The notes below the pieces were generated by a model. It ran no database searches and was not told where the DNA came from. It saw nothing but the letters and a program-made list of their open reading frames with translations. Shown in pieces: positions 1,204 through 21,777 of a stretch of DNA of 42,446 nucleotides; position 1 is the first letter of the stretch, and each line of letters starts with the position of its first letter. Made by a program: the position numbers and the translations under genes. The stretch comes from Patescibacteria group bacterium. GTDB lineage: Bacteria; Patescibacteriota; Gracilibacteria; UBA1369; PNNO01. The stretch is from positions 1-42,446 of the forward strand of contig JBHPIO010000011.1 of assembly GCA_042568575.1 (NCBI GenBank), in the 5' to 3' direction.

Positions 1204-1231
1204 ATAATAACATAATACGCTTAAGCGTCAC
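1204..1231 (-). promoter_or_regulatory. Putative antisense (leaderless) promoter for the intron HNH ORF
   Basis: The minus strand reads GTGACG-16 nt-TATTAT with an extended -10 TGn, 6 nt before the ATG at 1197. The perfect palindrome ACGCTTAAGCGT overlaps the -35/spacer. Confidence 0.5.
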
Positions 1232-1482
1232 AGGGCTGCTTGCGAAGTAATTCGCAAGTGATAACTTATCAAATTCGGGGAAGCCTAAATCTATTAAAGA
1301 TACGGTAATCCCGAGCCAAGCTCACATAAGTGAGAAGGTGTAGAGACTAGACGGTAAGCATCCTAACAGGATGAAGGGATAGTCCAGCTCACAAACCCGA
1401 AAGGGGCCATGAAAATGGTAGCGAGATGCATAACCGATTTGTCGCTGGTTCAAGTCCAGCCAGGCCCACCAAACGCTTTAGT

Positions 1483-6418: not shown

Positions 6419-6931
6419 ATGCTCGATCTCATCATCTCTTCTCTCTATTTTATTCTTCCGGCATATGTCGCAAATATGTGTCCGGTGATTTTTGGCAAAC
6501 TTAAATTCCCTTTTGGGAAGCCGATTAGCAAGAAACTTTTTGGTGCGCATAAGACGTATCGTGGCATTTATGTCGCTTATTTTGGCGCGCTTTTAACGTT
6601 ATTCATTCAACAAAAACTCGCGCTAACAGAAATCAGTCTCCTAGATTACGGTACGATTAATCTTTGGCTTTACGCGTTCCTTTTTGGAATTGGAGCAATT
6701 GTCGGCGATCTCGTAAAATCGTATATTAAAAGACGAATAAATATTAAACCTGGTGATCCGTGGATTCCTTTTGATCAACTTGATTTTATTGTTGGAGCAC
6801 TTCTGTTTCTGGCTCCTCTTTATGTTCCTTCATGGGAAGTTATCCTGGTAATAGTTATTGCAACTCCCCTTCTCCATCTTCTAACAAACGTACTTGGATA
6901 CGTTTTGAGGATCAAAAAAGTCTGGTGGTAA
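6419..6931 (+). CDS. carS: CDP-archaeol synthase (CarS/DUF46) family cytidylyltransferase
   Basis: Motifs LPAYVANM.P, FGAHKTYRG and GDLVKSYIKRR.NIKPG.PWIPFDQLDF, multi-TM. Confidence 0.85.
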   Translation: MLDLIISSLYFILPAYVANMCPVIFGKLKFPFGKPISKKLFGAHKTYRGIYVAYFGALLTLFIQQKLALTEISLLDYGTINLWLYAFLFGIGAIVGDLVKSYIKRRINIKPGDPWIPFDQLDFIVGALLFLAPLYVPSWEVILVIVIATPLLHLLTNVLGYVLRIKKVWW

Positions 6932-7255: not shown

Positions 7256-7401
7256 GACGACTCACGTGATGGGGAAAAAATCCCACAACGTTATTGCCAT
7301 CAAGATGGTAACGTTATCACTTTTACTTAGATTGTCAAGGCAGAGCTCTTCTCAATTTAATGAATATCTATAAAATGTTGGAGCGCAACCTACCAAATAT
7401 T

Positions 7402-8661
7402 ATGTGCCTCACAATCCCCGCAAAAGTAGTTGAAGTTAAAGGAGAAAAGGCTGTCATCCAAAAAAATGACAAGCTCCAGGAAATCGATATTCGTACGATC
7501 GAAAACCTTAAAGTAGATGACTGGGTTCTTTATATGTCTGATATTGCTGTGCAAAAAGTTACGCCAGAAGACGCAAAGGAAATTCTTGAGCTACTCGAGC
7601 ACGTACAAAAAACAGATCCTGAAAAACTTGATCCGAAGTTTGTTGAAGTCATTAAACATTCGAAACAGCGAAGGCTTAATAAAGACGAAATCGAGTATCT
7701 TCTTGAAACTGACGGACTTGAAAAAGAGGCTCTTTATAGCGAATCTGAGATGATTCGTCGAACGCACATTAAGGACTTCTTCTGCATTCACGGAATTATT
7801 GAATTTTCTAATTTCTGCCAAAATGACTGCCTCTATTGCGGCCTTCAAAAACAGAATACTGCTATTCGGCGTTATCGAATGCCTATTAATGAAATAGTTG
7901 ATGCAGCTGATGAGGCGGTTAATAAAAAGGGCTATAAGTTGCTAGTTCTTCAGTCTGGCGAAGATCCATATTACACAAAAGAAATGCTTGTTGAACTTAT
8001 TCAAAAAATCAAAGAGAAGTGTAAGGTCTTTATCTTCATGAGTATTGGTGAACGTGATTTTGAAACATACAAGGCAATGAAAGACGCAGGAGCAAGCGGC
8101 GTTCTATTTAGGTTTGAATCGTCTAATCCTGACTTGTTTAAGAAGATTCATCCGGACGGCAAGAGTCTCGAAAAACGTTTTGAGCATTTGAAGTTCATGA
8201 AAGATCTAAAATATTTCATAGCTTCTGGAGGGATTATTGGCATTCCTGGTCAAACTATTTCTGACCTTGCCAATGACATTATTACAATCCGCAATAATGA
8301 TTACGACATGGTTTCGATGGGACCTTTTGTGCCTTGCCCAAATACTCCTTATGCAAATGAAAAGCCCGGCGACATCGAAATGAATCTTAAAATGATTTCT
8401 ACTTTAAGGCTTGAATTAAACAATAAACGAATTCCAGTTGTTACGGCTTTGGAAACTCTCGATCCTGAAAAAGGTCGAAAAAGAGCAATCCAGGCGGGTG
8501 CAAATGCTTTAATGCTCAATGTTACTCCCGAGAAATACGCTCCGCATTACGAGATCTATAAACGAAAACAAGCGCTCGACAATGAGATGTGGGAAAAATA
8601 CGGGTTGTATAATTCTGATGAAAGTTACAAAATGCTTGAAGAAAAATTAACCATCGACTAA
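7402..8661 (+). CDS. HypC/HupF domain fused to a HydE-like radical SAM protein
   Basis: From ATG 7402, MCLTIPAKVVEV...VDDWVLY...AVQKVTPEDAKEILELL is HypC-like with Cys2. It continues in frame into GIIEFSNFCQNDCLYCGL, RYRM, VLQSGED, GIPGQT, MGPFVP.P.TP, GANALM.N.TP and Y.IY..K, which match the HydE family. Confidence 0.88.
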   Translation: MCLTIPAKVVEVKGEKAVIQKNDKLQEIDIRTIENLKVDDWVLYMSDIAVQKVTPEDAKEILELLEHVQKTDPEKLDPKFVEVIKHSKQRRLNKDEIEYLLETDGLEKEALYSESEMIRRTHIKDFFCIHGIIEFSNFCQNDCLYCGLQKQNTAIRRYRMPINEIVDAADEAVNKKGYKLLVLQSGEDPYYTKEMLVELIQKIKEKCKVFIFMSIGERDFETYKAMKDAGASGVLFRFESSNPDLFKKIHPDGKSLEKRFEHLKFMKDLKYFIASGGIIGIPGQTISDLANDIITIRNNDYDMVSMGPFVPCPNTPYANEKPGDIEMNLKMISTLRLELNNKRIPVVTALETLDPEKGRKRAIQAGANALMLNVTPEKYAPHYEIYKRKQALDNEMWEKYGLYNSDESYKMLEEKLTID

Positions 8662-10034
8662 TGTCTAAAACTTCACATATATTTGATGCGGATCAAATCA
8701 CGCATCTGGTAAGCTCAACGAAAAATCCTTCAAAGGATACTATTGAAAAAATTCTCCAAAAAGCCAAAAAAATGAGGGGCATCAATTTAGAAGAAGCCGC
8801 AACTTTAATAAACGCAGACAACCCTCATACAGAGGCAATGTTTAAAACGGCGGGATATATTAAAAACGAAATTTACGGAGAGCGGCTGGTTTTATTCGCT
8901 CCTCTTTATATTTCCAATTACTGCATCAACGACTGTGATTATTGTGGATTTCATGCAAGAAATAAACAAAAACGAATTAAGCTTTCTTTAAAGGAGGTTG
9001 AAGAACAAACACGAATTTTGATCAACATGGGGCATAAAAGATTGCTTCTTGAATTTGGGGAGCATCCGGTTGAAGCACCAATCGATTATATAATTGATGT
9101 TATTAAAACTATTTATAGCGTTAAGGAAGGACGCGGAGAGATTCGTCGTTTGAATGTAAATATTGCTGCGACTACAGTTGAGGACTACAAGAAACTGAAA
9201 GCAGCTGAAATTGGAACGTATCAACTTTTCCAGGAAACATATGATCGGGAAACTTATGAGAGACTTCACAAAGGTCCAAAAGGAGATTTTGAAAGGCAGC
9301 TTTTTGCGCATGATAGAGCGTTTGAAGGCGGAATTGATGATGTGGGGCTTGGGGTGCTTTATGGACTTTACGATTGGAAATTCGATACACTTGCTCTTCT
9401 TTCACATGCGTTTTATTTGGATAAGAAATATGGAGTTGGACCTCATACTTTTTCTGTGCCACGCCTCCAATCTGCACCTACTGTTGATGAAGACTGGCCT
9501 TATGAGGTTACTGAGGATGAACTGCTTAAAATAATAGCTATTTTGCGAATGGCAGTACCTTATACCGGCATGATTATTTCAACGCGTGAAAGGGCTGAAA
9601 TTCGTGAGAAGGCGTTTGAACTTGGCATTTCTCAAACAAGTGCTGCGTCGCAAACATCACCGGGTGGATATGGAAAAGAAGAAGCGCTGAATCAATTTAC
9701 AACGTCTGATGAAAGAAGTGTCGATGAAGTAATTGAGAAAATCCTAGATGATGGATTTATGCCGAGTTTTTGCACGGCCTGTTATCGTTTAGGACGGACT
9801 GGCCAGGACTTTATGGATATTGCAAAACCTGGAGAAATTCATAATTTCTGCAGGCCAAATGCGATTCTTACGTTAAAAGAGTATTTGGAGGATTATGCAT
9901 CTGAGCGCTCAAAAGCAAAAGGACTTAAAATAATCGATAAATATGTGGAAAAGATTCCTTCAAATTCTGTTCGTGAAAAAACTGTAAACAGGCTGAAGTT
10001 AATTGAAAAAGGTGAAAGAGATTTATACTTCTAA
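8661..10034 (+). CDS. hydG: [FeFe]-hydrogenase H-cluster radical SAM maturase HydG
   Basis: FAPLYISNYCINDCDYCGF, IGTYQLFQETY, GPHTFSVPR (dangler-Fe His) and the C-terminal CX2CX22C motif (FCTACYRLGRTG...HNFC), ending GERDLYF. TAATG overlap with the upstream gene. Confidence 0.94.
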   Translation: MSKTSHIFDADQITHLVSSTKNPSKDTIEKILQKAKKMRGINLEEAATLINADNPHTEAMFKTAGYIKNEIYGERLVLFAPLYISNYCINDCDYCGFHARNKQKRIKLSLKEVEEQTRILINMGHKRLLLEFGEHPVEAPIDYIIDVIKTIYSVKEGRGEIRRLNVNIAATTVEDYKKLKAAEIGTYQLFQETYDRETYERLHKGPKGDFERQLFAHDRAFEGGIDDVGLGVLYGLYDWKFDTLALLSHAFYLDKKYGVGPHTFSVPRLQSAPTVDEDWPYEVTEDELLKIIAILRMAVPYTGMIISTRERAEIREKAFELGISQTSAASQTSPGGYGKEEALNQFTTSDERSVDEVIEKILDDGFMPSFCTACYRLGRTGQDFMDIAKPGEIHNFCRPNAILTLKEYLEDYASERSKAKGLKIIDKYVEKIPSNSVREKTVNRLKLIEKGERDLYF

Positions 10035-10035
10035 T

Positions 10036-10064
10036 TTGACAATTTTGAACTTTGTGGCTAAAAT
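10036..10064 (+). promoter_or_regulatory. Sigma70 promoter
   Basis: TTGACA-17 nt-TAAAAT immediately after the hydG stop. Confidence 0.7.
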
Positions 10065-10090
10065 TCGCTCCTTGGAAATTAATATCTAAA

Positions 10091-11272
10091 ATGATTGAAG
10101 AAAGCTTGAAAGACCCTGGGAGCAGGAGTAGTAGTGAAAAAAATGGCCATGACCCTGAGCTGCATGAAATTGCAGAGGAATGTGATAGAAATCCAGTAAA
10201 TATATTTGGAGAAGAAACTGGCAATGAAGCAGGTGAGGTTATACAGGCAATTTATGGAATTCCTAATAGCCACTTTGATCAACCGTTAAACTCGCTTGGT
10301 GTTATTCCAGAAGGAATGTACGCTGCAAGTTGCGATGAAGACAGAAGCCTCCGAGATGATGTCCCTGGTGGACTTGTTGAACATGAAGGTGTGATTTTTT
10401 ATGCAACAACCGATCACGGAGTGCTAAGAAGCTGTGACGAACGAAAACCGCACAATGACGATGCATATTTTGTGATTCCTGAACAAAAAACGATTGGTGC
10501 TGCAGATGGCGTTAGTGGGAACCCAAAAAGAAATGATAAAGGACGTATGGCAGCTTCGGTTGCAACACTTGCAGCACTAATGGAAGCGCACCTTGATCTA
10601 CCGATGAGAAAATTAATAGAAATAATGCATGGAGCCGCTTTAAAACATAGATTATTTATAAGAGATCAATGGAAAAAACAAAAACAAAAAAAGGAAAAAG
10701 AGCCTCCAAAAAACTTAACTACAAGCACCGTAGCTCGCCTTAATAATAACAACGTTATTGAGTGTGCAAGTATAGGAAATACACGAGCGTTAGTTATTAG
10801 AGGGGAAAAAGCTCATCGCCTAACTTATGATCACACGATGCTAAATAGCAAAATGGGACATATGGAAATAACTGAAGAGCAAGCTTTTCGTATATTCGGA
10901 CCTTTCGCAATTCGTATGAAAAACAACCTTGTACAAGCGCTTGGGAGTGATGAAAATTTGCATCCTGGCGAAGATCCTGATTCTAATATAAAGCATGTGA
11001 ATATCAAACCTTTCTATGAAACGTTTCAGGCTCAAGGTGGGGATGTTTTATTAATATGTTCGGATGGAGTTACAGATGTTATGACTGACGACGAAATCGC
11101 TGAGTTTGTTTATGAAAGGAGACAAAAAAACATGTCTCTAGCAGAAATAATTGATGAACTTAAAGAGCATGTAATTTATCTAATGAAATACAGTCGCAAT
11201 GGGGATCATGAATATCCAAATAAACACGATGGCGACAACATTGTGATAGTCGGACTCGTTGTTCCGGAATAA
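10091..11272 (+). CDS. PP2C/PPM-family protein phosphatase-like protein with N-terminal extension
   Basis: Motifs HNDDA, AADGVSG, SIGNTRA (GDSR variant), LTYDH, QALG, ICSDGVTD and DGDNI. Confidence 0.85.
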   Translation: MIEESLKDPGSRSSSEKNGHDPELHEIAEECDRNPVNIFGEETGNEAGEVIQAIYGIPNSHFDQPLNSLGVIPEGMYAASCDEDRSLRDDVPGGLVEHEGVIFYATTDHGVLRSCDERKPHNDDAYFVIPEQKTIGAADGVSGNPKRNDKGRMAASVATLAALMEAHLDLPMRKLIEIMHGAALKHRLFIRDQWKKQKQKKEKEPPKNLTTSTVARLNNNNVIECASIGNTRALVIRGEKAHRLTYDHTMLNSKMGHMEITEEQAFRIFGPFAIRMKNNLVQALGSDENLHPGEDPDSNIKHVNIKPFYETFQAQGGDVLLICSDGVTDVMTDDEIAEFVYERRQKNMSLAEIIDELKEHVIYLMKYSRNGDHEYPNKHDGDNIVIVGLVVPE

Positions 11273-11323: not shown

Positions 11324-11854
11324 ATGTCTGAACAACAAAAAAAATTAAAAATAGGCTGGTTTTCCTTTACGTGCTGTGAAGATTCAACAATCATGTTCAC
11401 AGAAATGTTGAACGACCATTTTTTTGCGTGGTCTAAAATTATTGAATTTAGACATGCAAATATCCTCAAAAGTAAAAATGAGATGTCTGATATCGATGTA
11501 GCTTTTGTTGAAGGAGCTATCGCTTCTGATCGCGATAAAGAAAAACTTTTAAAAATCCGAGACGTTTCTAAGTATATTGTTGCAATTGGATCTTGCGCTG
11601 TAACAGGCCTTCCAACAGGACATCGAAACAATTTCAGCGAAGAAATGAAAGAAGAAATTTCGCCTTATCTAAAGCAATTTCATCAAAGTGCACGTGTATA
11701 TGCCCTTCACGAACTTATCCAAGTAGACGATAAAGTAGCAGGCTGCCCAATGATCGAAGCACAATTCGTAGTAGCCATCGACAAATATCTAAAAATGTTC
11801 AAAGTCATCTCCGAAGATGATTCAATAATCAACCACAAAAATGCATCAGATTAA
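11324..11854 (+). CDS. [NiFe]-hydrogenase small subunit (short, proximal-cluster-only; group 3 delta/HoxY-like)
   Basis: WFSFTCCEDS, DVAFVEGA, VAIGSCAVTG and VDDKVAGCP motifs. 176 aa, overlaps the large subunit start. Confidence 0.88.
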   Translation: MSEQQKKLKIGWFSFTCCEDSTIMFTEMLNDHFFAWSKIIEFRHANILKSKNEMSDIDVAFVEGAIASDRDKEKLLKIRDVSKYIVAIGSCAVTGLPTGHRNNFSEEMKEEISPYLKQFHQSARVYALHELIQVDDKVAGCPMIEAQFVVAIDKYLKMFKVISEDDSIINHKNASD

Positions 11855-13154
11855 TATATCGATTGAAGGATTATCTAAAATTGAAGGACATCTGGATATG
11901 GATGTTGTTATTAAGGATAACAAGATTACAGATGTTGAATTTAAGATTATGGAGAATAAGAGATTTTTTGAAAAAGCAATTCTTGGGAAGCCTTTCAATC
12001 AGGTTCCACAGCTGCTTTCACGTATTTGCGGAACGTGCAGTATTGCGCATCTCCTAGGTGCAATTGAAGCTGTTGAAGACGCTCTTGATTACAAGCCATC
12101 CGAACAGACAATGATATTAAGAAAGCTTCTCACATATGGACTGATGATACGCGATCACGCACTTCATCTTTATATCTTCACATTGCCGGATGTTATCGGC
12201 AAGGATTCGATTCTTGATTTTGACGAGAATGACGAGAGAGAACACAAATTGCTCCACGACATGTTTGACGTAAAACGTGCCGGAAACAACTTATCTACAA
12301 TCATAGGAGGACGTGCAGTACATGCGCCTTTCCCAATGCCCGGAGGGTTCGTTAAATATCCAACTCAAGAAGAGCTGGAAGCTTCACGCAAAGAGCTTTT
12401 AGAAATGCGTGAAAAAATTCTCTACCTACTTCAGGTTTTCGATGAATGTGATTTCAGTCTTGAAAGAAAAACTAAATTCGTAGGTCTTAAAACTGAAGAT
12501 TATAGTTTCTTGGATGGTCCTGCATTATGTAGTGAAGGAAATTTTTGTGTTCCAGAAAAGAGTTTTAGAGATCAATTAAAAGAAGTTGTAATCCCCTACT
12601 CAACAGCTAAGGCATACACTTTGCAGGGCGAAGAATACATGGTTGGAGCTCTAGCTCGAATGAATGTAAATCGAGAGGCTCTCCACCCAAATACTCAAAA
12701 AGATGCAAAGAAATATATAGACAGATTTCCTTCAATTGACGTTTATCATAACAACCTTGCACAGGCTATCGAGACTCTTCATTCGATAGATCATGCAGTT
12801 GAGATTCTTGAAACACTAAAGATCACGCCTGTTCCACCGGATAAGCTTACTCCAAAAGCAGGTGAAGGAGTGGGAGTTCTTGAAGCACCTCGTGGAACTT
12901 TGTATCACTATGTTGCTACTGACGCTGAAGGAATTATTACAAAAGCTGAAGTTGTGGTTCCAACTGCGCAAAATCAAATCAATATTGAAAATGATATTCG
13001 CGCACTAGTCCAACTACATCTTGATAAGGATGGAGAGAATATGGATAAAGATCTAGTTCGCTTTGAAATCGAGAAGTTAATTCGCGCATACGACCCATGT
13101 ATGAGTTGTGCAACTCACTTTTTGAAGATTAATTGGCAAATTCATGGAAGTTAA
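11841..13154 (+). CDS. [NiFe]-hydrogenase large subunit (group 3b-related)
   Basis: KIEGH, L1 motif SRICGTCSIAH, HALHLY, EAPRGTLYH, VVPTAQN and L2 motif RAYDPCMSCATH, plus an 11-aa C-terminal extension. Confidence 0.95.
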   Translation: MHQINISIEGLSKIEGHLDMDVVIKDNKITDVEFKIMENKRFFEKAILGKPFNQVPQLLSRICGTCSIAHLLGAIEAVEDALDYKPSEQTMILRKLLTYGLMIRDHALHLYIFTLPDVIGKDSILDFDENDEREHKLLHDMFDVKRAGNNLSTIIGGRAVHAPFPMPGGFVKYPTQEELEASRKELLEMREKILYLLQVFDECDFSLERKTKFVGLKTEDYSFLDGPALCSEGNFCVPEKSFRDQLKEVVIPYSTAKAYTLQGEEYMVGALARMNVNREALHPNTQKDAKKYIDRFPSIDVYHNNLAQAIETLHSIDHAVEILETLKITPVPPDKLTPKAGEGVGVLEAPRGTLYHYVATDAEGIITKAEVVVPTAQNQINIENDIRALVQLHLDKDGENMDKDLVRFEIEKLIRAYDPCMSCATHFLKINWQIHGS

Positions 13155-13620
13155 ATTTCGCACAGCAGGCTTAGGCGATATTAAGGATCTACAAACCCTT
13201 AAGTACGATCTTTGGAAGTATGAAGACGATAATTTTTGCGATATCACAGATCCAAATTATGCAAAAACAGATAAATATGCTGAAGATCTAAAAAAACAAA
13301 TAGAAGACCCTGGTTTTGCAATTATTGTTGCTGAGTATGAAGATGAGATAATTGGTGCCGTTTATGGCGAAGTCTTTGAAGCGACAAAATATAAAAGGAT
13401 CAAAATTGACTCCGAACTGATGAGTCTTTACGTGAAGGAAGAGCATCGAAATAAGAAGATCGGAGCAAAACTTGTTGATGAGTTTACTAAATGGGCAAAA
13501 AGCAAAAACGCAGATCAGATTAAGGTAGAACCTTATTATAATAATGAGGGATCCTTAAGATTCTATGAACGCGAGGGTTTTGAAGGTTATGTTGTTATGT
13601 TGAGGAAGAAGCTGAAATAA
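13144..13620 (+). CDS. GNAT family N-acetyltransferase
   Basis: LYVKEEHRNKKIGAKLV and NNEGSLRFYEREGF motifs. Confidence 0.9.
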   Translation: MEVKFRTAGLGDIKDLQTLKYDLWKYEDDNFCDITDPNYAKTDKYAEDLKKQIEDPGFAIIVAEYEDEIIGAVYGEVFEATKYKRIKIDSELMSLYVKEEHRNKKIGAKLVDEFTKWAKSKNADQIKVEPYYNNEGSLRFYEREGFEGYVVMLRKKLK

Positions 13621-13697
13621 TCTAGGATACACACCTATCTAGATTGGCAAAATCGCCTTTTTGTGCTATTCTATTAAGAATTACTAATCAAGTATTT

Positions 13698-14336
13698 ATG
13701 AATGCTGAACCAGCACATGGTGAGTCTAGTGAATCTCAAGATTCACTTATAAATAAACTCATCGATAGAACATTTGAAGTCCTTGGACAAGCAGATGCTA
13801 ATCAAGAACAGAGAGAAGAATTAGCAAAACAAGTCGTTGAAAAGCTAAGTGAATATGATGAAGAAACTGCACATGAAGCTTTATTAAGAATGACAGACAG
13901 TCTTAATCCCGGCGAAATTGATAACGAAGCACATATGCTTATGTTTCTTGGATGGGAAGCTAATGCAATTCTTGATGAAAAAAAGCCACCTATTGAGCTC
14001 GATGAGGGAGATGAAGTTATTGCTGAACACGCAATCGCAAAACTTAAAGGATTACGAACAGTTAATATAAATGTCTTTTCCGATGTAAGTGAAGCCCTCG
14101 ATACGATAATTAGCACTGAAATATCTCCTGATATAGAAGATAACGAAGCAGTATTCCCAGAAATCGAAGATAGTATGACTTTTGGGGAAGCAAAAGAAAT
14201 CATATCTAAAAATGCGCCACTTTTGGCTATTAGGCCAAATACAACAACTGCAGACATAGATTACAGACTCCTTGGAACGATTCGTGATCGAATGGAGGAT
14301 GAAATTGGACAAGATATTGAACAAAGTAGGAATTAA
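13698..14336 (+). CDS. Hypothetical acidic protein (paralog A)
   Basis: N-terminus DSLINKLIDRT..LGQADA...EALLRM.DSL is shared with the downstream gene. It has its own promoter-like upstream sequence. Confidence 0.7.
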   Translation: MNAEPAHGESSESQDSLINKLIDRTFEVLGQADANQEQREELAKQVVEKLSEYDEETAHEALLRMTDSLNPGEIDNEAHMLMFLGWEANAILDEKKPPIELDEGDEVIAEHAIAKLKGLRTVNINVFSDVSEALDTIISTEISPDIEDNEAVFPEIEDSMTFGEAKEIISKNAPLLAIRPNTTTADIDYRLLGTIRDRMEDEIGQDIEQSRN

Positions 14337-14417: not shown

Positions 14418-15059
14418 ATGACTGCAGAACTTGCACATTGTGAAAATAACGAATCTAACGAATCTACGGATTCGCTTGTAACTAAATTGGTTGATAGAAC
14501 ATTAGAATCTTTGGGGCAGGCAGACGCTCAAAATAGCCAAAAAGAAGAATTAGGTCTTTTCATAGAAGCAGAATTACATGGTTTCGACGCAGATACCGCA
14601 AGAGATGCGCTTCTAAGAATGAGGCATAGCTTAATGCCAGATTCTCCTAACTTTCAACAAATTGCAAGTGCAAAAATGATGCTTCAATTGCTTAAAAGAG
14701 AAGCTTTAGAACTTAGAGAAGCAAGGCAAACTCCAAATGAACTCCCAAACTTAAATGAATTGAAAATAAATCAAGGACTATCAAGACTCAAAGAATTGCT
14801 TGTAATGGATGAAGAAGCATATAATCGTGTTTATAGCGCGTTAGAGCAATTTACAACAATTCTAATTGAGGACTATCAAGAAAATGACCAACCAATTTTA
14901 GAAGATGTAGGATGGGAAACTTTTGGAGAAGTTAAGCTTACCTTGGAATATCATATGCCATTTCTGTGCATAACTTTCTTAACAAGACCCACTGAAATAA
15001 ATATTGAAATATTGTCAGAAATTCTAGACCGTTTTAATGAAGACGCTGATTTGGCTTAG
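14418..15059 (+). CDS. Hypothetical acidic protein (paralog B)
   Basis: DSLVTKLVDRT..LGQADA...DALLRM.HSL and TFGEVK match paralog A. Confidence 0.7.
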   Translation: MTAELAHCENNESNESTDSLVTKLVDRTLESLGQADAQNSQKEELGLFIEAELHGFDADTARDALLRMRHSLMPDSPNFQQIASAKMMLQLLKREALELREARQTPNELPNLNELKINQGLSRLKELLVMDEEAYNRVYSALEQFTTILIEDYQENDQPILEDVGWETFGEVKLTLEYHMPFLCITFLTRPTEINIEILSEILDRFNEDADLA

Positions 15060-15492: not shown

Positions 15493-15723
15493 ATGACTAA
15501 AGAAGTATCAACTTGTCCACAACTTATTACAACAGAACCATTTCAACTACATCCAAAACCTACTATAAAAGCAGATGGTGAGATAGTAAGTGTAAGTAAA
15601 CTACAAACTCCAGAGTGTAGAGCCATGTCCCATTGTAGCGATACAATTAGAATAGATTTTAATCATGCAGTAAAAGTTTGCATGAGTGATGATCATGTAA
15701 ATTGTCCTCAATTCAGAGGCTAG
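15493..15723 (+). CDS. Small hypothetical Cys-containing protein
   Basis: TTGACA at 15439 precedes the ATG at 15493. The stop overlaps that of the convergent gene. Confidence 0.45.
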   Translation: MTKEVSTCPQLITTEPFQLHPKPTIKADGEIVSVSKLQTPECRAMSHCSDTIRIDFNHAVKVCMSDDHVNCPQFRG

Positions 15724-17990
15724 ATCATCGGTTCCTCGAAATCTTCCGGCTGATCACCAGGCGCCAATTCAATTTCACCTGACTCATCCCACTTGGAAAG
15801 CATGTCTTCAACTTTAGCTACTGGAGTTGAGTATTTCTTTCGAGACTGTTCTACAATTTCTTTAGTGTAATCGTCTTTTGGCTTAACCACATCGAGAGTT
15901 CGGCCTGAGAACGGCCTTCGTACTTCTCCTTTTATGGACATCTTTGTGTAGAAATTTCGAACCGCAAGATTGATAATATCACGAACTTTAAATACCGGAG
16001 TGTACTCATTTTCCAAAACTACGGCATCGTCAGCACCTACACGGAATGTGATCATTGAGCCAACATTACCAAATACAGTCTTTACCATCTGATCAGTTAA
16101 TTGCCCCACAAACTGATGGGCAATCGTTAAATTTAATCTATATTTACGTGCCTCAGATAAAATTTCTTCAAAAGTATCTGTAGCAAAGTTCTGGAACTCA
16201 TCCACATAGAAGTAGAAATCAGTTCGATCCTCTTCTCGCATATCAGCACGACTCATTGCTGCCTGATACATTTTCGTAATAATCATAGCTCCGATCAAAT
16301 TCGAGTTTTCTTCTCCAAGTAGACCTTTAGACACCTTCATCAATAGGATCTTCTTTTTATCCATTACTTCTCGAATGTTGAATTTGTTAGTTGGTTGACC
16401 AATAATATTTCTAATCATGTTCGTTGCAACAAACTGACCAACTTTATTCAAAAGAGGTGTAATTGCCTCAGCATCAAATTTTTCACTCCATCCAGCAAAC
16501 TCGTTCACCCAGAAGTTTTTAACGACCGAATCTTTAATTCTGGCTGTGATCGTTTGTCTGTAATTCTTGTCCGAAAGCATCTTTAAGATACTCAAAACAG
16601 TTGTGTTTGGTGAGTCAAGAAGCGCCAGAGTTGTGTATCTTAAAACGTGTTCGAGCCTGTCACTCCAGTTTGAACCGAATAGCTTTTTAAAGATATTAAT
16701 AAACCCGACAGTCATCTGCATCTTGTATGCTTCATCAACCTTCTCCAGTGGATTAAACGCAATCGGGAAGTTTGTATCTCCAGGATCAAAATAAACTACA
16801 TCATTAATACGATCTTCTGGGATCATCTGCATAATATTATCAACAAGATCTCCATGAGGATCCAAAACCGCTACACCTTCACCATTTTTAATATCTTCAC
16901 TAATAAAAAGTTCAAGTAGTTTACTTTTCCCTGTACCACTCTTACCTACTGTATAAAGATGTCTTCTTCTGTCTTCACGTTTTATTCCAAAATCATCAAA
17001 CGAATTATGATAATTTGTTTTACCAAAGAAACTCACATCTTTGCCTCGAGTTTTTGGAAGATCCTGAGGCGGTTCCGCCTTTTTAGATAAGACATGGACG
17101 ATATGCGGCACATGGTCAGAATTTGGAAAATGATATAAAGTCGCCAGTTCCTTTGCGCTTAAGATCTGATCTTCATCCATATTTCTCTTTCGGAATGACT
17201 CCAAAAAGGATTTTGCACGAATTGGTCTGCCTGCGACAAACTCATTGAAGTCAATTTTATTATACTGATAAAACGCCTTCGAAATGGCTTCCAAACGAGC
17301 ATTGGCAAGTTGTTGATCTTTAGCAAAACATGCCAGTCGTACCTGGAACTTGAATGGATGAGTTGCCGTTTTTTCAATAAATGCCTTCTTCTCTTCTTCA
17401 AAGAATTCCTTTCTTCCCTTTAGCCTTGTGTAGTTTTTAAGGCGGAATACCCTTTTGATTCCGTTAAAGAACATGCGAAATCTCCGTTGTAAATGATAAA
17501 GCCAGTTGTCATGTTTAGGTGAAACAAGAATTTGAACCCAAAGTTGTTCATCCTGTCCTATTTTTGAAATAACCGCAAAGGCTCCTGCCAAACTATCTAC
17601 TTCAAAATCTTCATAATCGAGAATTGGATAAATGTCGCTCCTTTTTAATTTAAGCTTTGCTCCAGCAAAAGGAAGTTTTTGAGTTATTGCAAAATTAGTA
17701 TAATCCTTGCTATCAATAATTTCGCAATCCGGAAAAGTACTATATAAAAGCCCTTCAACAAGCGCAAAAAGATCAGCCGGCGCTACAATATAGAAATAAG
17801 AATATTGCCTATATCCAAATACTTCAAGACTAATTGTGCGACCTTTAATGGATTTATAAAGGTTATTCAGAAACTGAAGAAATTTTACTTCCTTTTTAGG
17901 ATCAGCTTCTGTTCCTTGAGGGACTACTACATGTAAATATTTTAGATCCATGTGAGGCTTTAAAAAATGTACCGTTGCATCGTGACACAT
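15720..17990 (-). CDS. VirB4/TrwB/HerA-like (DUF87) P-loop ATPase of the type common in CPR
   Basis: DRRRHLYTVGKSGTGKS (Walker A), LDPHGDL, FNPLE, FYVDEFQNF (Walker B) and ILSEARKYRLNLTIAHQF. Confidence 0.88.
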   Translation of the reverse strand: MCHDATVHFLKPHMDLKYLHVVVPQGTEADPKKEVKFLQFLNNLYKSIKGRTISLEVFGYRQYSYFYIVAPADLFALVEGLLYSTFPDCEIIDSKDYTNFAITQKLPFAGAKLKLKRSDIYPILDYEDFEVDSLAGAFAVISKIGQDEQLWVQILVSPKHDNWLYHLQRRFRMFFNGIKRVFRLKNYTRLKGRKEFFEEEKKAFIEKTATHPFKFQVRLACFAKDQQLANARLEAISKAFYQYNKIDFNEFVAGRPIRAKSFLESFRKRNMDEDQILSAKELATLYHFPNSDHVPHIVHVLSKKAEPPQDLPKTRGKDVSFFGKTNYHNSFDDFGIKREDRRRHLYTVGKSGTGKSKLLELFISEDIKNGEGVAVLDPHGDLVDNIMQMIPEDRINDVVYFDPGDTNFPIAFNPLEKVDEAYKMQMTVGFINIFKKLFGSNWSDRLEHVLRYTTLALLDSPNTTVLSILKMLSDKNYRQTITARIKDSVVKNFWVNEFAGWSEKFDAEAITPLLNKVGQFVATNMIRNIIGQPTNKFNIREVMDKKKILLMKVSKGLLGEENSNLIGAMIITKMYQAAMSRADMREEDRTDFYFYVDEFQNFATDTFEEILSEARKYRLNLTIAHQFVGQLTDQMVKTVFGNVGSMITFRVGADDAVVLENEYTPVFKVRDIINLAVRNFYTKMSIKGEVRRPFSGRTLDVVKPKDDYTKEIVEQSRKKYSTPVAKVEDMLSKWDESGEIELAPGDQPEDFEEPMI

Positions 17991-20472: not shown

Positions 20473-21777
20473 ATGAAATACCAAGACTCATTTCACTACA
20501 TAGATGAGAATTATACTCCGAAAGATTCGGATGTGATTTGCTTGTATCGTTTTGTTCCAAAACCAGGAACTAGTGTTGAAGAAGCTGCAGAGCAAATTGC
20601 TGCGGAATCTTCAATTGGTACATGGACAAAGATTTCAACAATGAACGAACACATTGCAAACACCCTTAAACCTCATATTTTTGCTTTAGACAAAGTGAAA
20701 GGATTAGTGAAAATTGCTTATCCAATTGGACTTTTTGAGATTGGAAATATGTCTGGGATCCTTTCTTCAATTTGCGGGAATATCCTGGGAATGAAAATTC
20801 TGGAAGAACTGAGAGTTTGTGACATCAAATTTCCAAAAGACGTTATCGAGAAATTTCCCGGGCCAGCTCTTGGAATCGAAGGAATCAGAAAAACCGTTAA
20901 CGTTTACGACCGTCCTTTTACAGGAACGATTGTGAAGCCAAAAGTTGGACTAACTAGCGAACAGCATGCGGAAGTCGGTTATCAAGCGTGGTCAGGTAAT
21001 GAAGGACAAGGTCTTGATATCGTTAAAGACGATGAGAATCTTACTTCTCAGACTTTCAATAGTTTTGATAAAAGAATGGAGCTTACACTAGCAATGAAGA
21101 AAAAAGTTGAAGAGGAAACAGGGCAAAAGAAATTTTATCTTGCAAACATCACTCACTCGAATTTTGATGAAATGATGCGAAGAAGTGATCTTGTTAAAAG
21201 TCTTGGAGGTCATGTATGTATGCTTGATGTTGTGACTCTTGGATTCGCAGCAGTTGAAAGTTACAGACGAAAAAACACTGGTCAAATTATTCATGCTCAT
21301 AGGGCAATGCATGGAGCTATTACAAGGGAACCTGGATTTACAGTTTCGATGCTTGTTCTTTCTAAGGTTTATAGAATGCTTGGAGTCGATCTACTTCATA
21401 CTGGAACTGCAGGCGCTGGAAAAATGGAAGGTGGAGCTCTTGAGACAATGACAATCGTTGATGCACTTGAGAAAGACTCTGTACCTGAAGATCCAAAAGC
21501 AGAATCTCTCGGACAAGAATGGTACGGAATGAAGCCAGTTTTGGCTGTTGCTTCAGGCGGATTACATCCAGGGAAAATCCCGTTAGTCGTTGAGAAAATG
21601 GGAATTGATATCGTTTGCCAAATGGGTGGAGGTTGTCATGGACATCCGGATGGAACTGCTGTTGGTGCTCAAGGAATTGTTCAAGCTACTGAAGCTGCTG
21701 TAAAAGGAATCCCAATTGAAGAATATGCTCAGGATAAGCCAGCTCTAAAGAAAGCACTAGAAAAATGGGGAGTGTAA
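20473..21777 (+). CDS. rbcL: Ribulose-1,5-bisphosphate carboxylase large chain, form III (archaeal type)
   Basis: AAESSIGTW, GNILGMK, GTIVKPKVG, catalytic DIVKDDENLTSQ, HAHRAMH, GKMEG, VASGGLH and GGGCHGHPDG. Confidence 0.93.
   Translation: MKYQDSFHYIDENYTPKDSDVICLYRFVPKPGTSVEEAAEQIAAESSIGTWTKISTMNEHIANTLKPHIFALDKVKGLVKIAYPIGLFEIGNMSGILSSICGNILGMKILEELRVCDIKFPKDVIEKFPGPALGIEGIRKTVNVYDRPFTGTIVKPKVGLTSEQHAEVGYQAWSGNEGQGLDIVKDDENLTSQTFNSFDKRMELTLAMKKKVEEETGQKKFYLANITHSNFDEMMRRSDLVKSLGGHVCMLDVVTLGFAAVESYRRKNTGQIIHAHRAMHGAITREPGFTVSMLVLSKVYRMLGVDLLHTGTAGAGKMEGGALETMTIVDALEKDSVPEDPKAESLGQEWYGMKPVLAVASGGLHPGKIPLVVEKMGIDIVCQMGGGCHGHPDGTAVGAQGIVQATEAAVKGIPIEEYAQDKPALKKALEKWGV

Follow-up and report, generated by a model that had tools for sequence, protein, structure and literature searches.

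A conserved HypC-HydE fusion protein encoded beside HydG and [NiFe] hydrogenase genes in Patescibacteria

A HypC domain joined to a HydE-type barrel

Here, we describe a gene that joins a HypC domain to a HydE-type radical S-adenosylmethionine (SAM) enzyme in a stretch of 42,446 nucleotides from a Patescibacteria group bacterium (assembly GCA_042568575.1, contig JBHPIO010000011.1, positions 1 to 42,446 of the forward strand), referred to as the window throughout. The fusion gene (7402..8661, plus strand) is an open frame of 419 amino acids with the N-terminus M-C-L-T-I-P. It heads an operon-like row on the same strand, in which genes for HydG, a PP2C-type phosphatase, the small and the large subunit of a [NiFe] hydrogenase, and a GNAT acetyltransferase follow one another with overlaps or short gaps. 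The stop codon of the fusion gene overlaps the start of the HydG gene by one base, and there are also overlaps between the small- and large-subunit genes and between the large-subunit and GNAT genes. HydG, the radical SAM tyrosine lyase (8661..10034, plus strand, 457 amino acids), scored 570.7 bits with TIGR03955 against a cut-off of 312 and keeps CX3CX2C and the C-terminal CX2CX22C auxiliary-cluster motif. The hydrogenase large subunit (11841..13154, plus strand, 437 amino acids) has R-I-C-G-T-C..H near its N-terminus and D-P-C-M-S-C..H near its C-terminus, with all four Cys ligands, and ends with an 11-residue C-terminal tail. It is classed as group 3b-like because the NCBIfam model that it matches best describes the alpha subunit of sulfhydrogenase 2. 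The small subunit (11324..11854, plus strand) is short, with 176 amino acids and four Cys, which suffices for one proximal cluster only. HydG and the HypC-HydE fusion are the only candidate cofactor-building genes beside this standard-looking large subunit, and together they form a compact and conserved set.

The initial annotation had proposed an in-frame fusion of HypC with a HydE-like enzyme, and profile and structure searches bore this out for both halves. Pfam HupF_HypC (PF01455) matched residues 1-65 (7402-7596) over its full length (model positions 1-65 of 65) with 59.6 bits against a cut-off of 28.5 (E 3.3e-16), and the HypC family model TIGR00074 was passed marginally (48.7 against 48). 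In a search of solved structures, residues 1-70 matched Thermococcus kodakarensis HypC (E 8e-8) and residues 82-390 matched Thermotoga maritima HydE (TmHydE; E 4e-73). The HydE-type barrel occupies about 7660-8595, as delimited by profile and structure matches. Pfam Radical_SAM matched residues 133-291, and the NCBIfam HydE model TIGR03956 gave 266.2 bits, just above its equivalog cut-off of 254.6. PylB, BioB, and HmdB were rejected as identities of the barrel, with scores far under the respective cut-offs (156.2 bits against 348.2, 92.8 against 225, and 51.5 against 320.9). An AlphaFold model built from an 88-row alignment was confident over both domains (predicted local distance difference test [pLDDT] 88.5, predicted template modeling [pTM] score 0.87) and showed the HypC domain as a five-strand barrel with a helix. 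The nearest solved folds were TmHydE (template modeling [TM] score 0.89-0.92, E 4e-33), then PylB, then BioB, in line with the proposed closeness of the barrel to HydE. A complex prediction for the large subunit with HypC residues 1-75, run without controls, reached 0.18 against a mark of 0.32 and weighs neither way.

An upstream ATG at 7360 would lengthen the protein by 14 residues. This longer start was rejected, since M1, C2, L3, T4, I5, and P6 are each conserved in at least 90% of an alignment of 88 homologues as the N-terminus, so that translation probably begins at the originally assigned position 7402. A GGAG 18 bases 5' of this ATG is not decisive as a ribosome binding site. Given the conserved Met-Cys start, the N-terminal Cys of the HypC domain is predicted to be free after removal of Met.

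The sequence peculiarities first noticed in both domains were all seen again in the alignment and in the sequence. D-R-Y-L-L-R-H-E-T of TmHydE is aligned to S-G-V-L-F-R-F-E-S in the fusion protein and P-A-T-T-A to P-V-V-T-A, and CX3CX2C, LQSGED, and Y..Y..K are kept. The 419-residue sequence has no Cys after residue 311, and therefore lacks the C-terminal Cys cluster. In the HypC domain, the His of stand-alone HypCs from the Candidate Phyla Radiation (CPR), found there in the stretch V-H-A-G-F-A, is replaced by Met (W-V-L-Y-M-S-D). In a second fusion subtype, described below, the same position is Gln, whereas stand-alone CPR HypCs mostly have His. We take the conserved His of the V-H-x-G-F-A stretch to be His51 of Escherichia coli HypC.

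Distribution, gene neighborhoods, and phylogeny

Homologues of the fusion protein are numerous. A search returned 1,047 proteins at E<=1e-10; all 120 listed carry both Pfam domains and are about 418-445 amino acids long, and the close homologues are named Peregrinibacteria or Patescibacteria at NCBI. A scan of genome contigs with the single fusion protein gave 7 fusion relatives. A complete related chromosome of 1.37 Mb (locus L010, genome G401) encodes a fusion protein that is 70% identical, and its row fusion-HydG-small-large-GNAT repeats the order in the window minus PP2C. HypD, HypE, HypF, HydA, HydF, and HycI are all absent from this complete chromosome. The assembly of the window itself (31 contigs, 1.2 Mb, 81.8% complete) gave the same picture: HypD, HypE, HypA, HycI, and the H-cluster domain of [FeFe] hydrogenases were not found in it, the search for HydF gave only weak GTPase-like matches, that for HypF only weak partial matches, and the sole HypC match is the fusion itself. 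Incompleteness of the assembly could explain one such absence, but hardly seven. The size of the genome and its genes for NusB, RNase III, and a RuBisCO large chain are in keeping with a bacterium of the Patescibacteria (CPR).

We surveyed an even sample of 401 Patescibacteria genomes, counting as a fusion a HypC match inside an open frame of at least 424 amino acids. HypC was detected in 75 genomes, the [NiFe] large subunit in 81, and HydG in 9, and the fusion in 13, all of which have a large subunit and 8 of which have HydG. A follow-up covered 80 of the 86 genomes with large subunit, HypC, or HydG; the six dropped genomes have no fusion (G089, G111, G232, and G262 with HypC only, G024 and G208 with weak large-subunit matches). 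HypD and HypF were each found in 17 of the 80 genomes and HydA in 4, with none of the three in any of the 13 fusion genomes. At E<=1e-40, the HydE model matched 15 genomes, namely, the 13 with the fusion, genome G029, and G108 with a sub-threshold match. HypE was absent from all 15 and HydF was present in G029 alone. Thus, the link between two maturation machineries that the fused architecture had suggested recurs as a conserved family beside HydG and [NiFe] hydrogenase genes: every sampled fusion genome has a [NiFe] large subunit, and none has HypD, HypE, HypF, HydA, or HydF. G029 is a natural contrast to the fusion genomes. In this genome, HydF, an unfused HydE that retains the canonical Arg, and HydG are encoded in a row and HydA is also present, but neither a [NiFe] large subunit nor HypC was found. 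In three further genomes (G096, G118, and G242), an H-cluster domain protein was present with no HydG at E<=1e-30.

A different gene family stands out near the hydrogenase genes of the sampled genomes. DUF6390 (PF19927) adjoins [NiFe] hydrogenase or HypC genes in 32 of the 80 genomes and occurs in none of the 17 genomes with HypD. It co-occurs with the fusion in G066 and G153, and in the latter it is encoded between HydG and the small subunit (L053:11044-11718) and has a weakly HypC-like C-terminus. DUF6390 may be another maturation factor.

A search with the radical SAM part alone revealed the second fusion subtype, whose HypC domain starts with M-C-Y-A-I-P-G. Its named members come from Omnitrophota and a Pseudomonadota metagenome-assembled genome and are labelled HydE. 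We scanned metagenomes with this subtype, which yielded 520 relatives, and kept 80 loci, in which open reading frames were clustered, examples were annotated with Pfam, and labels were assigned by blastp; since many loci are short, the neighbor counts are lower bounds. HydG lies within the flank in 46 of the 80 loci, the [NiFe] large subunit in 31, the hydrogenase beta subunit in 24, HycI in 19, and HypA in 14. Neither HypD nor HypF was found in these flanks, which reach 10 kb at most (0/80 each; blastp with two CPR reference proteins, E<=1e-8). A typical locus runs HypA, fusion, beta, gamma, small, large, HycI, with HydG following close by. NCBIfam further identified HypC-HydE-HydG triple fusions (P0126, P0130, and L117:3625-6387), the last of which adjoins genes for the gamma, small, and large subunits of a hydrogenase. 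Both CxxC motifs are kept in all 27 large subunits from fusion loci.

A FastTree phylogeny computed from 272 radical SAM columns of 157 HydE-type sequences, from which 7 of 150 representatives shorter than 300 amino acids were left out, resolved a single clade of 36 that takes in every one of the 32 sequences with a HypC-like N-terminus (Shimodaira-Hasegawa [SH]-like support 0.84). The remaining four members comprise two fragments and two genuinely unfused proteins with the clade signature. IQ-TREE recovered the split (SH approximate likelihood ratio test [SH-aLRT] 81) and supported the subtype of the window at 98; this tree comprised 87 rows (35 of the 36 clade members and 52 of the 121 others) and used a group defined beforehand by the FastTree result, and therefore does not test the split independently. 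The fusion genomes without HydG fall within one subclade, in which HydG is present in the remaining members (G163, G312, and the triple fusion P0126). Outside the fused clade, seven HydE-type proteins (P0142, P0145, P0150, P0151, P0155, P0171, and P0187) have N-terminal extensions of about 100-150 residues other than HypC.

Taken together, the fusion proteins are a real, conserved, and mis-named protein family, the function of which is tied to [NiFe] and not to [FeFe] hydrogenases. The database name "[FeFe] hydrogenase maturase" for this family is likely misleading.

A residue switch and a possible route to the [NiFe] site

Whether the HydE half of the fusion could still perform HydE chemistry is best discussed in terms of individual residues, numbered here as in TmHydE via the alignment and compared between the fused clade (n=36) and the other HydE sequences (n=121). 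E58, V105, L157, R159, E161, and T269 are kept in the fused clade, M224 in 35 and M291 in 33 of its 36 members, and K309 is Lys in 27 and Arg in 5. According to the portions of PMC11826987 that deal with the active site, E58 and K309 form a cysteine-cleavage relay, M291 and M224 hold the Fe(I) species, and the CN ligands at the product site are contacted by the polar residues R54, T134, and R155. These three polar residues are the ones that differ: R54 is His in 36 of 36 fused-clade sequences (Arg in 112 of the 121 others), T134 is Phe in 32 of 36 (Thr in 107 of 121), and R155 is Gly in 32 and Ala in 4 (Arg in 106 of 121). In addition, position 52 is Cys throughout the fused clade, whereas the other HydE sequences have His (40), Tyr (19), Phe (16), or another residue or gap (46). 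From strand geometry, positions 52 and 54, which are separated by one residue on the first barrel strand, should have their side chains on the same side. PMC10114646, in the part concerned with the cavity, describes a bottom site, S3, that consists of one Thr and two Arg, is important for maturation, and faces the exit leading to HydF. The changed pocket proposed at the outset has thus taken a more definite form: as far as residue conservation can tell, the product site appears to be altered across the clade while the catalytic residues of HydE stay.

We lean slightly towards the view that HydG and the HydE-HypC fusion supply the Fe-CO/CN unit to the [NiFe] hydrogenase in place of HypD, HypE, and HypF. 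In its fuller form, in which the Fe-CO/CN half of the [NiFe] site would derive from tyrosine via HydG and a re-tooled HydE, with the fused HypC replacing HydF as acceptor and HypD, HypE, and HypF not universally required, we regard this proposal as evenly balanced between right and wrong. The passages on HydG and HydE in PMC11826987 and PMC10114646 state that HydG uses tyrosine to build a cysteine-bound Fe(CO)2(CN) complex, which HydE adenosylates and strips of its cysteine; according to published abstracts, HypC binds Fe(CN)2(CO) through its N-terminal Cys and delivers it to the large subunit. In the fusion genomes, HydG would cleave tyrosine to yield a cysteine-bound Fe(CO)x(CN) complex, as is established chemistry for this enzyme, and the HydE barrel, in which the needed residues are all kept, would adenosylate the complex and strip its cysteine. 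The resulting mononuclear Fe species would be neither dimerized nor passed to HydF. It might instead be held at the remodelled exit site (Cys128-x-His130, Gly233, and Phe212) and be taken by Cys2 of the fused HypC domain, which would insert it into the apo large subunit, rendering HypD, HypE, and HypF dispensable. At some point on this route, the ligand ratio would have to change to Fe(CN)2(CO).

Each half of the fusion protein resembles a known system and departs from it in ways that bear on this proposal. T. maritima HydE (PDB 3cix, 7o1o, and 8qmk) shares sequence, fold, CX3CX2C, the residues E58, R159, E161, M224, T269, M291, and K309, and an adjacent HydG. Unlike it, the fusion protein has an N-terminal HypC domain, His, Phe, and Gly for R54, T134, and R155, and an invariant Cys at the position of H52; the C-terminal Cys cluster is missing, and neither HydF nor an H-cluster protein was found in the genome. 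HypC/HybG/HupF chaperones such as T. kodakarensis HypC (PDB 2z1c) have in common with it the full-length hidden Markov model match, the Met-Cys start, the predicted five-strand barrel and helix, and a [NiFe] large subunit nearby. However, here the domain is fused to a 350-residue enzyme, its conserved His is lost, and no HypD partner was found in the genome. In green-algal HydEF, HydE is fused to HydF, the recipient of its product, and the target is an [FeFe] hydrogenase; in the fusion described here, the partner is HypC and the neighbor is a [NiFe] hydrogenase. Because the algal protein joins HydE to the recipient of its product, the fused HypC may by analogy be read as the acceptor.

In the canonical HypCDEF pathway, as outlined in the pertinent section of PMC12134894, CN derives from carbamoyl phosphate through HypF and HypE and is assembled on a HypD scaffold. 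The proposed route would end in the same way, with the N-terminal Cys of HypC delivering an iron-carbonyl-cyanide unit to the large subunit, but neither HypF, HypE, nor HypD was found together with the fusion in the genome of the window, in G401, or in the 13 sampled fusion genomes. In its relevant sections, this 2025 review considers six Hyp proteins to be needed for every [NiFe] cofactor and the anaerobic origin of the CO ligand to be unresolved; the terms HydG, HydE, and "radical SAM" each have 0 occurrences in it. The portion of PMC9431212 concerned with maturation covers standard Hyp and Hyd sets in clostridia only. A full-text literature search, outside of which most subscription journals lie, returned no paper that reports a HypC-HydE fusion or implicates HydG or HydE in [NiFe] maturation. 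The parts are known families; their combination and the implied pathway are new.

Several observations weigh against the proposed route. Five of the 13 fusion genomes (G062, G130, G290, G304, and G325; 91-99% complete) have neither HydG nor a ThiH-like gene, from which it follows that a HydE-like enzyme can exist without HydG. As far as the sections on ligand composition in PMC10114646 and PMC12134894 go, the HydG product carries 2 CO and 1 CN and the [NiFe] site 1 CO and 2 CN. The fused HypC domain is without the His that stand-alone HypCs keep. Absence of HypD and HypF is not special to fusion genomes either: 30 of the 80 follow-up genomes have DUF6390 only and 19 have none of the searched factors, so some other route must exist in the phylum. 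For the second subtype, the absence of HypD and HypF covers the flanks only, and HypDEF could lie elsewhere in these genomes. Finally, HycI is missing from the genome of the window and from G401 despite the C-terminal tail of the large subunit, and HypA is missing from the genome of the window.

Some of these points find a natural place in a narrower function, which we consider unlikely but worth keeping in sight, in which the fusion serves the [NiFe] hydrogenase in one step only, for example by supplying or processing just one ligand (CO or a sulfur species) of iron bound to HypC, starting from a substrate that HydG does not make, with the rest of the cofactor coming from other factors such as DUF6390 proteins. 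The five genomes without HydG would fit, as would the stand-alone, His-bearing HypC encoded directly upstream of the fusion in four of them and the occurrence of DUF6390 beside hydrogenase or HypC genes, never with HypD and twice with the fusion. Nevertheless, the residues for complex-B chemistry in TmHydE are all kept, and HydG usually accompanies the fusion, as a neighbor or as part of the same protein (8 of 13 genomes, 46 of 80 loci, and the triple fusions). Moreover, the HydG-less genomes share their subclade with HydG-bearing G163, G312, and P0126, which is consistent with secondary loss of HydG. The mismatch in ligand stoichiometry could also mean that the large subunit carries a non-standard iron site, such as Fe(CO)2(CN) or a sulfide-bearing unit adopted without change from the HydG/HydE route, which would make the enzyme a hybrid of [NiFe] and [FeFe] chemistry. 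The lack of HypA and HycI in the genome of the window and of HycI in G401, the unusually short small subunit, and the absence of beta and gamma subunits in the lineage of the window point the same way. We judge such a site improbable, considering that the four Cys ligands and flanking motifs show no variation among the 27 fusion-linked large subunits and that second-subtype loci carry HypA and HycI, which act in nickel insertion and cleavage.

There is very little room for an ordinary [FeFe]-hydrogenase maturase whose H-cluster target was missed or unassembled and whose closeness to [NiFe] genes is incidental. The NCBI family name, "[FeFe] hydrogenase H-cluster radical SAM maturase HydE," and the HydE model score just over the cut-off speak for it. 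Against it stand the absence of HydA and HydF from all 13 fusion genomes and from G401, with the same searches detecting both in G029 and in control genomes, the replacement of product-site residues needed for maturation in TmHydE, and the recurrence of the [NiFe] linkage in two subtypes. An assembly or gene-calling artefact joining two genes, which the initial annotation had wished to see excluded, is negligible: the frame is continuous in 12 other sampled genomes (N bases occur near the start of the G290 copy) and in the complete chromosome, the 120 listed homologues come from many sources and have both domains at a similar length, and the AlphaFold model is confident.

If HydG and the HypC-HydE fusion do supply the iron unit of the [NiFe] site, two maturation systems thought to be separate would become joined in a fourth, hybrid route of hydrogenase maturation. 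The CO ligand of the [NiFe] site would then have a defined anaerobic source, and the HydE barrel would have been redirected from dimer formation to delivery of mononuclear iron. Such a two-gene module might also be of use for maturing [NiFe] enzymes in heterologous hosts.

Further features of the locus

Between HydG and the hydrogenase genes of the window lies the gene for the PP2C-type Ser/Thr phosphatase (10052..11272, plus strand). It is present in the related locus L008 and is probably not a core part of the row, because it is absent from L010. The two-gene hydrogenases of the window, L008, and L010 have small subunits of 176-189 residues with no beta or gamma genes nearby. Sets of four subunits of the 3b type occur in other fusion genomes.

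The GNAT acetyltransferase gene of the window (13144..13620, plus strand) overlaps the end of the large-subunit gene. GNAT genes overlap or abut the large-subunit gene in four related loci in all (window 13144-13620, L008:7172-8118, L010:14474-14947, and L053:12575-12904), and that of G153 (L053) is placed between the small- and large-subunit genes. To our knowledge, no acetyltransferase acts in hydrogenase maturation. Following GNAT in the window are two paralogous open reading frames (13644-14336 and 14418-15059, plus strand; 230 and 213 amino acids, 36% identical) that match no Pfam family and lack counterparts in the related loci. In three related loci, the hydrogenase row is closely followed by a conserved gene for a TraG/VirD4-like coupling protein (window 15720-17990, minus strand; L008:8571-10802; L010:16396-18627).

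Farther from the row, a group I intron was matched by Rfam at 1219-1409 (plus strand, 64.7 bits over the full model), and no rRNA or tRNA gene was called around it. A gene at 6419-6931 (plus strand) gave a full-length match of 135 bits to the CDP-archaeol synthase family (CarS-like) in an otherwise bacterial genome. Seven kilobases downstream of the hydrogenase, a RuBisCO large-chain gene with both Pfam domains is encoded at 20473-21777 on the plus strand.

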